62,982 nucleotides of DNA from an uncultured Bacteroidia bacterium (lineage in GTDB: Bacteria; Bacteroidota; Bacteroidia; Bacteroidales; ML635J-15): contig CADARW010000006.1 of the NCBI GenBank assembly GCA_902790405.1, forward strand, positions 1-62,982, written 5' to 3'. The translations under genes were made by a program, and so were the position numbers. Of the stretch, positions 5,388 through 11,475 are shown piece after piece (the first letter of the stretch is position 1; each line of letters starts with the position of its first letter). The notes beneath the pieces are model-generated. The model saw only the letters and a list, made by a program, of their open reading frames with translations, made no database searches and was not told the DNA's origin.

Positions 5388-5537
5388 CGTTACAATTTTT
5401 TGCAAATGTAAGGAAAAGATTCGATGATTTGATAATTTGAATATTCAAAAATTAAACCACTTTTTGCATAATTGTCAAATGTTAATTGTCAATTATCAAT
5501 TTTTTATTACCTTTGAGGTCGAAAAAAAATATAAGTT

Positions 5538-7425: not shown

Positions 7426-8616
7426 ATGTATAACGATTTTCAAGCTTATCTACAGAAGGAAATAGCTGGTATCAGAGAAGCCGGCTTGTACAAGAACGAA
7501 CGAATAATAGCATCGCCGCAGGGTGGTGAAATCACATTGCAGGACGGAACCAAGGTTCTCAATTTCTGCGCAAACAACTACCTCGGCCTCGCCAACAATC
7601 CACAGCTCATCGCTGCAGCAAAGGAAGCCATGGATACTCACGGCTACGGTATGGCATCGGTAAGGTTCATCTGCGGTTGCTCCGACCTTCACAAGGCATT
7701 GGAAAAGAAGATTGCTGAATTCTTTGGTACTGAGGACACTATCCTCTACGCTGCTTGCTTCGACGCTAACGGCGGTGTTTTCGAACCATTGCTAGGCGAA
7801 GACGATGCTATCATCTCCGACTCGTTGAACCACGCTTCAATTATCGACGGTGTTCGTCTGTGCAAGGCTCAGCGTTTCCGCTATGCAAACGCCGACATGG
7901 CCGACCTCGAAGAAAAACTCAAGGAAGCACAGAAGTGCCGTTTCCGCCTCATTGCTACCGACGGCGTATTCTCGATGGACGGTAACGTTTGCCCTCTCGA
8001 CAAGATTTACGAACTCGCAAACAAGTACAACGCAATGGTAATGGTTGACGAATCGCACTCGGCAGGCGTTGTCGGAAAGACTGGCCGCGGTGTTACCGAA
8101 CGCTACAACCTCCGTGGAAAGATTGAAATCCTTACCGGTACTCTCGGAAAGGCTTTCGGCGGTGCAGTAGGCGGATTCACAACTGGTAAGCGCGAAATCA
8201 TCGAAATGCTTCGTCAGCGTTCAAGACCATATTTGTTCTCCAACTCTATTCCGCCAATGGTTGCCGCTGCTGGCTGCAAGATGGTTGACATCATGTCGAG
8301 CACCAACGAGTTGCAGGACAAGCTTCACAGCAACACCGACTACTTCGTTGCAAAGATGAAGGCTGCTGGCTTCGACATCAAGCCAACCGAATCGGCAATC
8401 TGCGCAGTAATGCTCTACGACGCAAAGCTTTCGCAGGATATGGCTGCAAAACTTCAGGAAGAAGGCATCTATGTAACTGGCTTCTACTATCCTGTAGTTC
8501 CGAAGGGACAGGCTCGTATCCGCGTTCAGATTTCGGCAGCTCACGAAATCGCCCACCTCGACAAGTGCATCGCAGCATTTACCAAGGTCGGCAAGGAACT
8601 CGGCGTTATCAAGTAG
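7426..8616 (+). CDS. kbl: glycine C-acetyltransferase (2-amino-3-ketobutyrate CoA ligase)
   Basis: 396 aa. It starts LQKEIAGIREAGLYKNERII. The PLP-lysine context GTLGKAFGG and the alpha-oxoamine synthase layout are present. Confidence 0.93.
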   Translation: MYNDFQAYLQKEIAGIREAGLYKNERIIASPQGGEITLQDGTKVLNFCANNYLGLANNPQLIAAAKEAMDTHGYGMASVRFICGCSDLHKALEKKIAEFFGTEDTILYAACFDANGGVFEPLLGEDDAIISDSLNHASIIDGVRLCKAQRFRYANADMADLEEKLKEAQKCRFRLIATDGVFSMDGNVCPLDKIYELANKYNAMVMVDESHSAGVVGKTGRGVTERYNLRGKIEILTGTLGKAFGGAVGGFTTGKREIIEMLRQRSRPYLFSNSIPPMVAAAGCKMVDIMSSTNELQDKLHSNTDYFVAKMKAAGFDIKPTESAICAVMLYDAKLSQDMAAKLQEEGIYVTGFYYPVVPKGQARIRVQISAAHEIAHLDKCIAAFTKVGKELGVIK

Positions 8617-8638: not shown

Positions 8639-8672
8639 AAAGTCGGGACGGAAGTTCCGACTTTTTTTGTTG
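8639..8672 (+). terminator. kbl intrinsic terminator (copy T1 of a duplicated terminator)
   Basis: AAAGTCGGGACGGAAGTTCCGACTTTTTTTGTTG. A near-identical copy lies at 11441-11475. Confidence 0.8.
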
Positions 8673-8940
8673 AGTGTTTACAGCACTTTTGGTGCTGCAC
8701 TAAAAGTGGAATTGAGATAAAATGCGGGATATAAAAATGTTATAGTTCATAGCAAAATAAATTTTGACACAATTTTTATATATCGCAAAAAAACAATAAC
8801 TTTGTGGGTAAATATGTAATATCTCCAAAACATAGGTATATGGACACAACTTTTTTATACCGGAAAATGGTAGATAAATCTGTTCTTTTTCAAGGATTTA
8901 CGATTCCTGTAAAATATCACCAATGTCCTTTCGGATTTAC

Positions 8941-8980
8941 AATCCGAAAGTCTTGAGTATCAGCATTTGTAATGCGCAGA
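8941..8980 (+). repeat. 40-bp direct repeat, left copy (DR1)
   Basis: AATCCGAAAGTCTTGAGTATCAGCATTTGTAATGCGCAGA is 37/40 identical to 11281-11320. Weaker similarity continues for about 12 nt. Confidence 0.85.
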
Positions 8981-9143
8981 TTAAGACAATTTACAGCAGT
9001 CGGCAATAGTTGGCTGCTGTTTTTGTTTCTGTGTGTAATAAATTTCTTCGCTCATGCTTTTTGTCTTGACAACAAAAGACTCCTCATCTTCAATCTGATA
9101 GGACAATATTTCGAAAAATTGTGCGCAGTTTCGGAAAAAGCAT

Positions 9144-9189
9144 TATCTTTGCAAACAGAAATATTGTTCGCAATTCGCGAACAGCGAAC
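9144..9189 (+). promoter_or_regulatory. -7 box TAtcTTTG (9144-9151) followed by an operator-like inverted repeat GTTCGC-AATTC-GCGAAC (9166-9182) and a third GCGAAC half-site (9184-9189)
   Basis: Read directly from the sequence. It lies 32-77 nt upstream of the wHTH gene ATG at 9221. Confidence 0.45.
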
Positions 9190-9220
9190 AAGTAAGATTA
9201 AGTATTTAATATACACACAA

Positions 9221-9736
9221 ATGAAACCACAAGATATTCTTGTCTTATTAAAAAAGATGACATCTGCAGGAAAGACATTGTCGTATCACGGGTTGGCAGA
9301 ATCGTTAGGGTTAAGTGCATCAACGGTGAGCGAAAGTTTGGAACGCTGCAAAAAGGCAAAACTTATCGACCGTGACAAAAAGCGAGTTAATGTACTGGCC
9401 TTGCAGGAATTTCTGATTCACGGCATTGCGTATGTCTTTCCCGTAGAGGCTGGGCGTGTCGGCAGAGGCATTCCAACCAATTCAAGCGCGTCGCCTATAA
9501 AGGAGAACATAACTGGTAGTTCCGAAATTTATGTATGGCATTATGTAAAAGGAACTTCACGCGGACAGCAAATCGAACCAATCTATCCTACTGTACCCGA
9601 AGCCGCCCTTCGCGACGACGAACTTTATCAGTTGCTGGTAATTGTTGATGCCTTGCGAATTGGACACAGCAGAGAGAAATCCGTTGCCATTGAAGAACTG
9701 ACCAAAAGATTGAACCGATATGCAGAAAACAAATAA
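9221..9736 (+). CDS. winged-helix DNA-binding protein, AbiEi-like putative antitoxin/regulator
   Basis: The track ORF 8972..9736 is trimmed to Met84 (MKPQDILVLLKKM), because the 83-aa upstream extension covers repeats and the promoter. HTH: LSYHGLAESLGLSASTVSESLERCKKAKLI. Its end overlaps the next gene by 17 nt. Confidence 0.6.
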   Translation: MKPQDILVLLKKMTSAGKTLSYHGLAESLGLSASTVSESLERCKKAKLIDRDKKRVNVLALQEFLIHGIAYVFPVEAGRVGRGIPTNSSASPIKENITGSSEIYVWHYVKGTSRGQQIEPIYPTVPEAALRDDELYQLLVIVDALRIGHSREKSVAIEELTKRLNRYAENK

Positions 9737-11201
9737 CGAACGCCTACAGGAAATTGCCGAGGCTTTGCAGGACTTGAACGACAGGCTTGTATATGTGGGC
9801 GGTGCTATGGCAGGTTCGTATGCTACAGACCCAACCGCAACAGAACCTCGTGTGACTTTTGATGTGGATTGTGTGGTAGATACTAAATCGTACAGCGAAC
9901 ACATAGACTTTGAAAATAAACTTCGTGCAAAACATTTTCAGAACGACCAAACGCCCGATGCTCCTCTTTGCCGATGGGTGTTCAACGGAGAAAAAGTGGA
10001 TGTAATGTCGATGGACGAAAAGAGTTTGTCGTTTGGTAATCGTTGGTATCGTCCAGGGTTCGAGAGACGCGAATTATGCACACTGCCTTCGGGAGAAAGC
10101 ATTTATCGCCTTTCTGTTACATACTATATTGCATCAAAAATTGAAGCATTGCTATCGCGTGGCGGTAACGACTGGCGAGGTGCAAAAGATTTCGAAGATA
10201 TTGTTTATGTACTCAATTATTGTTCCAATTTCATAGAACAATTTAAAAATGAAGATGCGCAGGTTCGCAATTATGTTTCGGATCAATTTTCGCAGATGTT
10301 AAAGCGTTCCAATATTTCAGAGGAAATAGAATCTGCAATATCATACGATGAAATTGAGCGCACCGATATGATTCTGGAAACACTGAAAGCCATTTCGGAA
10401 TACAACCTCCAATCATTAAGTATACAATTTGTCAGCGACTTGCATTTGGAATTTCCAGAAAACAGAGCATTTATTGCAAGTCATCCGTTGTTGGAAGTGT
10501 CGGGAGAAATCTTACTTGTTGCAGGAGATTCTGCATATCTTGACCATCCTGATTCTCGTCAGGACACATATTCGCATTATTCTTTCTGGGACTGGGCATC
10601 AAATAATTACAAGCAAGTAATTGTCTGCCTCGGGAATCATGATTTTTACGGCTACTACGACCTTGCCACAATGCCAGACGGCTATTGCAAGCAGATTCGC
10701 ACTAATGTTCACGCATATTATAATGCAGTTGTGCATCTTGGGGATACTGACATTATTGTTTCTACGCTATGGTCGCATATAAATCCGAATGATGCCTATA
10801 TTACAGAACGGAATGTCAGTGACTTCTATCGGATTATGTACAAAGGGCATCGCCTAAATGCAGAAAACTTTAATCAGGAACACGAACGATGCCTGCAATT
10901 TGTGAAAAAGGCAGTTGCAGAAAGTCGTGCAAAGACAAAAATTGTCCTTACCCACCATGTGCCGACTCAATTATGCACAGCAGATGAATTTCGTGGCAGT
11001 GCCATAAATGGTGCGTTTTCTGTTGAACTTGGCGATTATATTGCAGAGTCTGGCATTGACTTCTGGATTTACGGGCATTCGCATCGTAACATTGATGCCC
11101 AGATTGGCAATACGAAAATATTGTCCAACCAACTTGGGTATGTTTCACACGGAGAACATCGCTCCAATGGATTTAATCCGAAAAAGAAAATTGATTTGTG
11201 A
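9720..11201 (+). CDS. fusion protein: Pol-beta-superfamily nucleotidyltransferase (AbiEii/DUF1814-like) + calcineurin-like metallophosphoesterase
   Basis: 493 aa. The N-terminal half has VGGAMAGSYA...RVTFDVDCVV (G-G...R-x-T-x-D-x-D) and KIEALLSRG...GAKDFEDIVYVL. The C-terminal half has all five metallophosphoesterase motifs: SDLHLE, AGDSAY, GNHDFY, LTHHVP and YGHSHRN. Confidence 0.75.
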   Translation: MQKTNNERLQEIAEALQDLNDRLVYVGGAMAGSYATDPTATEPRVTFDVDCVVDTKSYSEHIDFENKLRAKHFQNDQTPDAPLCRWVFNGEKVDVMSMDEKSLSFGNRWYRPGFERRELCTLPSGESIYRLSVTYYIASKIEALLSRGGNDWRGAKDFEDIVYVLNYCSNFIEQFKNEDAQVRNYVSDQFSQMLKRSNISEEIESAISYDEIERTDMILETLKAISEYNLQSLSIQFVSDLHLEFPENRAFIASHPLLEVSGEILLVAGDSAYLDHPDSRQDTYSHYSFWDWASNNYKQVIVCLGNHDFYGYYDLATMPDGYCKQIRTNVHAYYNAVVHLGDTDIIVSTLWSHINPNDAYITERNVSDFYRIMYKGHRLNAENFNQEHERCLQFVKKAVAESRAKTKIVLTHHVPTQLCTADEFRGSAINGAFSVELGDYIAESGIDFWIYGHSHRNIDAQIGNTKILSNQLGYVSHGEHRSNGFNPKKKIDL

Positions 11202-11226
11202 TTCCAATGTTCTCTGTCCTATGGGC

Positions 11227-11280
11227 AACCTTTAGCTCACTGCCAAAGGCAGTAACCTTCAGCTCGTTGCCAATGGCAGC
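11227..11280 (+). repeat. 27-bp tandem repeat x2 (AACCTTNAGCTC + small hairpin)
   Basis: AACCTTTAGCTCACTGCCAAAGGCAGT (11227-11253) / AACCTTCAGCTCGTTGCCAATGGCAGC (11254-11280). The AACCTTTAGCTC word also occurs at 7303 and, reversed, at about 58541-58570. Confidence 0.8.
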
Positions 11281-11320
11281 AATCAGAAAGTCCTGAATAT
11301 CAGCATTTGTAATGCGCAGA
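11281..11320 (+). repeat. 40-bp direct repeat, right copy (DR2)
   Basis: AATCAGAAAGTCCTGAATATCAGCATTTGTAATGCGCAGA. See DR1 at 8941-8980. Confidence 0.85.
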
Positions 11321-11440
11321 CAAAACAATTTCACGCGTGCGGATTATAAATCCTTATATTCACATTGTCTGGATTGCAAATCCAGACAACCTTTATTACC
11401 GCTTGGTGCGGTGAACTAATGGTTATAAATTCATAATCCG

Positions 11441-11475
11441 AAAGTCGGGGCGAAAGTTCTGACTTTTTTTTGTTG
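11441..11475 (+). terminator. intrinsic terminator (copy T2 of the kbl terminator)
   Basis: AAAGTCGGGGCGAAAGTTCTGACTTTTTTTTGTTG differs from T1 by 3 substitutions and one extra T. Confidence 0.7.

Follow-up and report, generated by a model that had tools for sequence, protein, structure and literature searches.

What would a toxin-like nucleotidyltransferase (NTase) do with a phosphatase on the same polypeptide? The question is raised by a two-gene locus in a 62,982-nucleotide stretch of DNA (GenBank contig CADARW010000006.1, hereafter “the window”) that comes from a rumen Bacteroidales genome. Gene 1 (9221–9736, plus strand) encodes a 171-residue protein with a predicted winged helix-turn-helix (wHTH), and gene 2 (9720–11201, plus strand) encodes a 493-residue protein in which a putative NTase of the AbiEii/MenT type is followed by a calcineurin-like metallophosphoesterase (MPE). 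Both open reading frames, and the 17-nt overlap between them (9720–9736), were found as an initial annotation of the sequence had described them. We propose that the locus is a small mobile module of the toxin-antitoxin (TA) or abortive-infection type, of the AbiE/MenAT kind and a variant of the defense candidate PDC-M21, in which a toxin switched by phosphorylation would carry a built-in phosphatase that re-arms it. We assign this reading a probability of about 0.5. The arrangement is not a chance observation, since at E≤1e-3 there are 353 homologous clusters (90% identity) for gene 2 and 373 for gene 1.

The two halves of gene 2

The NTase half comprises residues 1–228 (9720–10403, plus strand), of which residues 3–228 match the PDC-M21B model PDLC04516 of PADLOC with E=4.4e-49. 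Its Pol-beta motifs are intact (G27 G28, R44, T46, D48, D50, D94, K140, R147, D157, E159 and D160). When 38 fusion homologues, taken from the 353 gene 2 clusters and 68–86% identical to the window protein, were aligned (alignment A2), all of the catalytic residues listed here for either half were invariant, and the finding of the initial annotation that both halves have complete motifs was borne out. In a 43-member alignment of the NTase family (A1), G27 G28, D48, D50, D94, W109, K140, A143, D157 and D160 are invariant, and R44 and T46 are conserved in at least 90% of sequences. The family profile matched two PDB entries, 5uvd (NTase-like, 1.5e-6) and 8an4 (MenT1, described as “AbiEii/AbiGii toxin family”, 2.8e-5). 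MenT1 was also the best Foldseek match of the N-terminal half (8an5_B, E=1.4e-6, TM score 0.62 on the target). For gene 2, AlphaFold gave a model with a mean pLDDT of 84 and a pTM of 0.59, the latter suggesting that the arrangement of the domains is uncertain. Pfam AbiEii (PF08843) is matched by 29 of the 43 family members at E≤1 (best 7e-8), the relative P0300 clears its threshold at 29.4 bits, the window protein itself falls short (19.7 against 22.5 bits, E=8.9e-4), and RefSeq labels several plasmid homologues “nucleotidyl transferase AbiEii/AbiGii toxin family protein”; these Pfam scores indicate membership of the superfamily, not of the family. On the profile and fold matches, the N-terminal half is a distant member of the DUF1814/AbiEii/MenT superfamily, as had been supposed, and by its residues it is catalytically intact.

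The only Pfam call on gene 2 is Metallophos (PF00149; residues 235–456, E=2.7e-12, 48 bits against a cut-off of 21.5), within the half that runs from residue 234 to the stop codon (10419–11201, plus strand). By its motifs this half is a complete MPE, again as first described, with all five in place: D240/H242 (DLH), G269-D270 (GDS), G305-N306-H307 (GNHD), H412-H413 and G452-H453-S454-H455. In the MPE family alignment (A4) the D, H, GD, GNH, HH and GHxH positions are invariant. Foldseek matches of the C-terminal half, at E of about 1e-7, were headed by purple acid phosphatases and included PptH, Dbr1, Rv0805, MPPED2 and GpdQ, at just 12–18% identity to the solved structures. The motif set of the clade (DxH, GDxxY, GNHD, HH, GHxH) is in the style of the purple acid phosphatases, which are phosphomonoesterases. 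With its own FWDW, IDFWIYGHSH and NQLGY features, the MPE half appears from sequence to belong to an uncharacterized, Bacteroidota-centered family, and no close characterized homologue was found among PDB sequences or in NCBIfam. Elsewhere in this family, a Parabacteroides distasonis plasmid (L053:4421–5768) carries adjacent MPE genes of 193 and 255 amino acids, the longer of which is 46% identical to the C-terminal half of gene 2 and has SNF2-related and RNA-binding-domain genes as neighbors.

The combination is rare, in keeping with its first description as unusual. An exhaustive HMMER search with the N-terminal half returned about 2777 NTase clusters at 50% identity, nearly all of them stand-alone proteins of about 230 amino acids, and the MPE fusion forms a single cluster (P0026), from rumen and gut Bacteroidales. 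Other long PDC-M21B relatives (P0300, P0302, P0320, P0338 and P0375) were considered as further phosphatase fusions and rejected, as they contain no phosphatase domain; one of them carries PilZ. Carriage of the fusion by phages was likewise rejected. INPHARED and IMG/VR hold no relatives of the N-terminal half, and only stand-alone relatives of the MPE.

A phosphatase in the third position

PDC-M21 is a PADLOC candidate, a three-family cassette with 166 instances that was found by “guilt-by-embedding” in BREX, DISARM and type I restriction-modification (RM) loci; experimentally it is only a candidate, and in the table of candidates the two-gene A>>B cassette (713 instances) carries the label “Reject” (Payne et al. 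2024, bioRxiv 10.1101/2024.01.29.577857). The legend of Fig. 6E in the same work has PP2C among the abbreviations for multi-gene examples (bioRxiv 10.1101/2024.01.29.577857). Gene 1 of the window matches the A component (residues 17–165 against model PDLC04515, E=1.2e-45). On Pseudoalteromonas and Acinetobacter plasmids (L070, L071) a PDC-M21C gene lies directly 3′ of B, and this third gene matches both PDC-M21C (1.6e-23) and Pfam PP2C (PF00481, 25.7 bits against a cut-off of 20.3), so that by profile the canonical third component is a PP2C protein phosphatase. The window has its MPE in the position of PDC-M21C, fused about seven residues past the end of the NTase domain, where SIQFVSDLHLE is the counterpart of the N-terminal sequence MKIQFVSDLHLE in stand-alone MPEs. 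The idea that the MPE half is itself PDC-M21C was discarded, as PADLOC gave no PDC-M21C match in gene 2. By these matches the pair is made up of the A and B components of PDC-M21, and the MPE fusion is a new, clade-restricted variant. Of the novel module first announced, the fusion variant is indeed new, and the A/B pair had already been catalogued. Among the papers searched, none names PDC-M21 in its main text, and none links AbiEii or DUF1814 with a metallophosphoesterase in an operon.

Linkage of this MPE to NTases extends beyond the fusion. Stand-alone relatives adjoin at least four NTase families, and the pairs are encoded on the same strand, often with overlapping or nearly abutting stop and start codons. 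In a rumen metagenome-assembled genome (MAG; L009), an MPE 74% identical to the window C-terminal half lies 3′ of an AbiEi_2 (PF09952, 1e-22) and AbiEii-like pair. In Bacteroides hominis (L063), an unfused PDC-M21A and B pair is preceded by an MPE with 35% identity (E=9e-51). In at least 11 species-level genomes of Bacteroides, Phocaeicola, Prevotellaceae and Muribaculaceae, and also on IMG/VR contigs, the MPE lies 3′ of a pair formed by a protein of about 320 amino acids and an NTase of about 260 amino acids with the signature GGTACD...RPRATxDID; one MPE lies upstream of such a pair, within a type I RM locus. In four Saprospiraceae genomes (L027, L028, L029, L032) the MPE adjoins NTases of the RlaP family (PF10127, “RNA repair pathway” Pol-beta).

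Two of these arrangements can be described further. The unit of the ~320-residue protein, the ~260-residue NTase and a 253-residue MPE occurs in human-gut and rumen Bacteroidales (L011–L016, L019, L021, L023, L037 and L043, for example L013:6275–8774) and on two IMG/VR contigs (L072, L073). Neither the ~320-residue protein nor the GGTACD NTase has a Pfam or PADLOC match, and hhalign related the GGTACD family to the PDC-M21B family at 93.6%; the unit looks like an uncatalogued relative of AbiE and PDC-M21. In the Saprospiraceae the MPE is immediately upstream of the RlaP genes, two of them in L027 (8001–10601) and L032, and one shown in L028 and L029; the MPE-NTase linkage there is of another type.

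What such a phosphatase might act on is suggested by work on the toxins themselves. MenT1 and MenT3 are silenced when their antitoxins, MenA1 and MenA3, induce them to phosphorylate themselves on T39 and S78, respectively, and the phosphoacceptor sits two positions before the DxD motif and is strictly Ser or Thr across DUF1814-related families (Arrowsmith et al., PMC11375011). AbiEii is likewise silenced by antitoxin-induced auto-phosphorylation, and in vitro the phosphorylated form, AbiEii-p, regains NTase activity once dephosphorylated by the PP2C-type phosphatase SaSTP; the part that phosphatases play in reactivation in vivo is, according to the authors, still to be explored (2026 preprint, bioRxiv 10.64898/2026.01.19.700257). 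In gene 2 the equivalent residue is Thr46 (codon 9855–9857, plus strand; PRVT46FD48VD50), two residues before D48xD50 in the translation PRVTFDVDC. It aligns with the T of “RFTRDVD” in MenT1 and is the counterpart of MenT1 T39 and MenT3 S78. T46 is invariant in alignment A2 and also in alignment A7, which comprises two PP2C-linked NTases, two beside which the annotated stretch has no phosphatase gene, the MPE-linked window protein, L063, L009 and L013; the Thr of R-x-T-x-D-x-D is invariant in all of the phosphatase-linked NTases aligned there.

The proposed mechanism is as follows. Gene 1 would repress the operon by binding a TTCGCGAA palindrome just downstream of the promoter, and its conserved C-terminal domain would bind the NTase and hold it inactive. 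The likeliest way of doing so would be to make the NTase phosphorylate itself on Thr46, in the manner of MenA1 and MenA3 with MenT and of AbiEi with AbiEii. The NTase domain would be the toxin and, by analogy, would add nucleotides to the 3′ acceptor ends of tRNA and block translation. The fused MPE would take the role of the PDC-M21 PP2C and remove the inhibitory phosphate. A pre-made pool of silenced toxin could then be re-armed rapidly once the hold of the antitoxin is lost, for example during phage infection. Three lines of evidence lead to the model of a re-arming phosphatase: PP2C and MPE are not homologous and fill one and the same place in the operon, the phosphoacceptor is conserved, and there is the biochemistry of the cited work. 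Its direct supports are the domain identities, the catalytic residues, Thr46, conservation of the operator, the positional equivalence of PP2C and MPE, the MPE-NTase linkage and mobility; toxicity, the tRNA target, phosphorylation of T46, action of the MPE on pT46 and the trigger are what we infer. A TA-like nature would be in line with the 17-nt overlap, the cross-phyla operator, decayed copies that keep gene 1, and relatives that are plasmid-borne or linked to defense genes. The initial annotation had instead offered the MPE as a hydrolase of RNA ends or cyclic phosphates, or as a nuclease effector. A protein-phosphatase role is now favored over both because the canonical third gene is a PP2C and DUF1814 toxins are controlled by auto-phosphorylation.

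Several points weigh against our reading. Toxicity, phosphorylation and phage defense are predictions for gene 2 and the PDC-M21 family, and PDC-M21 is itself a candidate. A constitutive phosphatase in cis would seem to oppose antitoxin-induced phosphorylation unless it were itself regulated. Homology of gene 1 to AbiEi or MenA was not detected by Pfam, hhalign or Foldseek. The MPE has SDLHLE, AGDSAY and GNHD, a motif set like that of purple acid phosphatases or class III phosphodiesterases, in place of the PPP-type signature GDxHG/GDxVDRG/GNHE. If it does dephosphorylate proteins, it would have to do so as an enzyme outside the PPP type. In sequence searches it gave weak matches to phosphodiesterases (CpdA, YfcE, Lmo2642 and PptH), and its sequence is just as consistent with a phosphodiester substrate. 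In roughly half of the MPE loci sampled, the gene stands without an NTase neighbor; these solo loci and the RlaP neighbors fit a nucleic-acid substrate. Finally, copies of the fusion lie singly among housekeeping genes, outside defense islands.

Some of these points lead to a second explanation, which we consider unlikely but the strongest of the alternatives. MPE and NTase would share a nucleic-acid substrate in an enzyme that heals and extends RNA, the MPE clearing 2′,3′-cyclic or 3′-phosphates, or trimming the 3′ ends of tRNA or other RNA, for nucleotide addition by the NTase; such an enzyme could serve as a toxin of broader range or in RNA repair or counter-defense. Fused domains usually perform consecutive steps on one substrate, and the same MPE family stands beside two “RNA repair pathway” NTases in the Saprospiraceae genomes. 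Phosphodiesterases among the weak sequence matches and Dbr1 among the fold matches point the same way, as do MPE homologues in jumbo phages (26–28% identity), calcineurin-like phosphatases having been proposed to clean RNA ends in jumbo-phage RNA repair (PMC7824862). Relatives also occur within type I RM loci, the near-exclusive home of the anticodon nuclease PrrC (Payne et al., Fig. 6C legend, bioRxiv 10.1101/2024.01.29.577857). Set against this, the fusion loci have no RNA ligase or kinase partner, and a repressor with overlapping genes, a TA-like trait, is atypical of repair operons. The equivalent position in canonical PDC-M21 is, moreover, filled by a PP2C, and to our knowledge this family acts on phosphoproteins and is not known to act on RNA ends.

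Could the MPE instead work alone? It might be a self-standing nuclease, or a phosphodiesterase of nucleotides or second messengers resembling the single-gene candidate PDC-S10, which is uncoupled from the NTase, merely travels with NTase TA pairs and became fused to one by loss of a stop codon. The MPE half does show a weak, partial match to PDC-S10 (residues 231–333 against profile positions 8–92 of 223, E=4e-7). Besides the many stand-alone loci that have no NTase neighbor, solo MPE genes are found on Bacteroidota plasmids near TA, RM and insertion sequence (IS) genes, and one decayed fusion locus (L008, below) keeps an intact MPE despite deletion of the NTase core. We nevertheless consider this explanation improbable. 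Recurrent same-strand adjacency to at least four divergent NTase families, together with the fusion, is hard to account for without functional coupling, all catalytic residues have been kept in both halves of the 38 fusion homologues, and PDC-M21 has a PP2C in the analogous position.

Gene 1, its candidate operator and the mobility of the pair

Gene 1 (PDC-M21A family) is a putative autorepressor and antitoxin. In its AlphaFold model a wHTH (residues 1–72) is predicted with confidence, the middle (77–116) poorly, and helices follow at the C-terminus; the N-terminal wHTH that had been called from the sequence is thus present in the model, and in Pfam it appears only as winged-helix matches below threshold (residues about 5–60). 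The description of gene 1 as AbiEi-like did not hold. Pfam gave no AbiEi match, hhalign of its family against a bona fide AbiEi_2 protein gave 3.6%, and Foldseek returned only generic wHTH regulators at E>0.1; the protein matches PDC-M21A instead. On a cyanobacterial plasmid and on a betaproteobacterial one, the protein encoded upstream of the homologous NTase is 43–46% identical to gene 1, and the most conserved part of gene 1 is its C-terminal region.

The start of gene 1 was reassessed. It is an internal ATG (9221) inside an open reading frame of 8972–9736, and the ENA gene calls begin at 8972 and lengthen the protein to 254 amino acids. That call is probably wrong, because the extension (8972–9220) holds both a terminator-like hairpin (8993–9020) and the promoter/operator region. 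Position 9221 appears to be the correct start, since most of 120 listed homologue clusters (among 373 in total) are exactly 171 amino acids long and the conserved promoter/operator (9144–9189) would fall within the 254-residue reading.

When the upstream regions of nine fusion loci with otherwise unrelated flanks were aligned, a TAnnTTTG box was seen in all nine, followed by GTTCGCAATTCGCGAACAGCGAAC. In the window the box is TAtcTTTG (9144–9151, plus strand), a candidate Bacteroidetes -7 element, taken as a promoter from the known Bacteroidetes consensus. The GTTCGCAATTCGCGAACAGCGAAC element (9166–9189, plus strand) is a candidate operator with the palindromic core ATTCGCGAA at 9173–9181, the only occurrence of the core in the 63-kb window. 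The same core is found just upstream of gene 1 homologues in Bacteroides hominis (two copies), in other Bacteroidales, and on Oscillatoria and Aquabacterium plasmids. Because the TTCGCGAA palindrome upstream of gene 1 is conserved across phyla, gene 1 is suggested to be a sequence-specific autorepressor acting on this predicted operator. AbiEi and MenA3 are autorepressors of this kind. Paired TTCGCGAA-type operators about 100 nt apart were observed at two loci (L059:7348–7373 and 7446–7471; L063:5353–5362 and 5452–5461). Such pairs hint that gene 1 might bind cooperatively or loop the DNA, behavior known from the operators of AbiEi and MenA3.

The pair is horizontally mobile, and in this genome its insertion site is flanked by kbl and the atp operon. 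Its upstream neighbor is a kbl-type aminotransferase gene (7426–8616), its downstream neighbor the ATP synthase operon (from about 11562), and the 20 kb around it are core metabolism. The rumen MAG L001 is 95% identical to the window by blastn across 8986–11207 (plus strand) only and has this segment at an unrelated genomic site. The upstream edge of the mobile unit is marked by the terminator-like hairpin (8993–9020, plus strand), a 12-pair stem followed by the T-run TTTTGTTT, which is kept in L001. Elsewhere the fusion has inserted singly, into a MacB/FtsX array or between dnaK and suf genes, and at diverged fusion loci conservation begins at the promoter and ends at the stop codon of gene 2. 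Near-identical copies of the locus are present in the MAGs RUG13712 and RUG10760, and the genome L002 has the same kbl and atp flanks as the window.

Stand-alone A and B pairs occur on many plasmids (114 records). Their neighbors include a type I-like methyltransferase, a type III restriction enzyme with a PLD nuclease, and PARIS; one pair lies inside a polyvalent-protein mobile element, and relatives also lie inside type I RM loci. The B. hominis locus (L063:4588–9659, GCA_033042735.2) has its unfused MPE, PDC-M21A and PDC-M21B genes in a small defense island next to PARIS (AriA 2.4e-58, AriB 1.9e-67) and a HipA-like gene. The initial description of a TA-style, mobile and defense-associated pair is upheld by the PADLOC matches to PDC-M21A and B, the unrelated insertion sites and these plasmid-, PARIS- and RM-linked relatives. 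Gene 2 has decayed in three species-level genomes, all of which retain an intact 171-residue gene 1. L008 (8001–9020) has lost residues of about 36–184 in frame, which removes the NTase core and keeps the MPE, and larger deletions are seen in L024 (1077–1813) and L047 (5047–5337). Loss of the NTase with retention of gene 1 is consistent with the asymmetry expected if gene 2 is toxic; note that the sample is small and consists of MAGs. The genomic context of the pair varies. A housekeeping role, as a transcription factor with a bifunctional enzyme of nucleotide metabolism that is neither toxin nor defense, draws on the position between kbl and the ATP synthase operon, both core genes, and on a public annotation that says merely “metallophosphoesterase”, and is very improbable given near-identical copies at unrelated chromosomal sites, relatives on plasmids, in conjugative elements and in defense islands, and a patchy distribution with some decayed copies.

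A 41-nt direct repeat flanks the pair in the window (left copy 8940–8980; right copy 11280–11320, 93% identical; both plus strand), and its two copies compare with none expected by chance. In the sister genome L002, window positions 11253–11450 are absent, the right copy among them, and no flanking repeats were found at four other fusion loci checked (L001, L003, L056 and L059). An integron-like or site-specific cassette was rejected as the general mechanism of mobility, as the repeats occur only at the window locus and no recombinase is nearby. An attachment site in a tRNA or other structured RNA in the flanks was rejected too; ARAGORN found nothing and Rfam gave one chance microRNA (miRNA) match. 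A 53-residue minus-strand open reading frame (11173–11334) spans the right repeat, and a related peptide fragment (LRITNAD...) would be encoded by the left one. Rather than a site of recombination, this may be what is left of a disrupted gene. The hairpin of the kbl terminator (8639–8668) has a duplicate 3′ of the pair (11441–11470).

Relation to known systems

AbiE is described as the fourth most abundant phage-defense system (PMC11375011), and between 2024 and 2026 its toxins and the MenT toxins of Mycobacterium tuberculosis were found to be silenced through antitoxin-induced auto-phosphorylation. For the reactivation of such silenced toxins this locus offers a testable model, with toxin and phosphatase on one polypeptide. 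A phosphatase has been attached to such toxins repeatedly, in two unrelated folds and as a neighboring gene or a fusion. We tentatively extend the proposal to a subset of AbiE/MenT-type toxins that may carry a dedicated reactivating phosphatase (PP2C in canonical PDC-M21, the MPE in several Bacteroidota, and the fused MPE here), forming three-part phospho-switches that have no kinase. The main value of the locus lies in comparative evidence for such a phosphatase. It also provides a functional rationale for the candidate PDC-M21 and flags the uncatalogued three-gene relative, which is common in human-gut Bacteroides and Phocaeicola. If the model is true, the fusion would be a “Rosetta stone” for how phospho-silenced DUF1814 toxins are reactivated.

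The closest known system is PDC-M21, with which the window shares the A and B matches, gene order, overlap, upstream TTCGCGAA operator and a metal-dependent phosphatase as third part. The third part of PDC-M21 is a separate protein of PP2C fold, whereas that of the window is a calcineurin-fold MPE fused to the C-terminus of B. Points in common between the window and AbiE or MenAT are a Pol-beta NTase (motifs GG...TxDxD, a third Asp, K and D..ED), the conserved Ser/Thr two residues before DxD, a fold closest to that of MenT1, and a bicistronic operon whose genes overlap, whose upstream gene encodes a protein containing a wHTH and whose operator is an inverted repeat. They differ in that the partner in the window shows no detectable homology to AbiEi (COG5340), MenA1 or MenA3 and the Pfam AbiEii match is sub-threshold; the AbiE and MenAT systems in the papers cited here encode no phosphatase of their own, and reactivation is there ascribed to housekeeping PP2C enzymes, PstP and SaSTP (PMC11375011; bioRxiv 10.64898/2026.01.19.700257).

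Two further comparisons concern the MPE. Purple acid phosphatases, PptH, Rv0805 and CpdA have the same five-motif dinuclear metal site, and the first of these share the GDxxY form of motif II, but identity to any solved structure is 12–18% and FWDW, IDFWIYGHSH and NQLGY are specific to the Bacteroidota-centered family of this MPE. RNA repair systems of the Clostridium thermocellum Pnkp and RlaP type also join a metallophosphoesterase to a nucleotidyltransferase, and in Saprospiraceae the same MPE family adjoins RlaP. In contrast to these, the window protein has no kinase or ligase domain, its NTase is of the toxin type (DUF1814), and its predicted regulation is TA-like.

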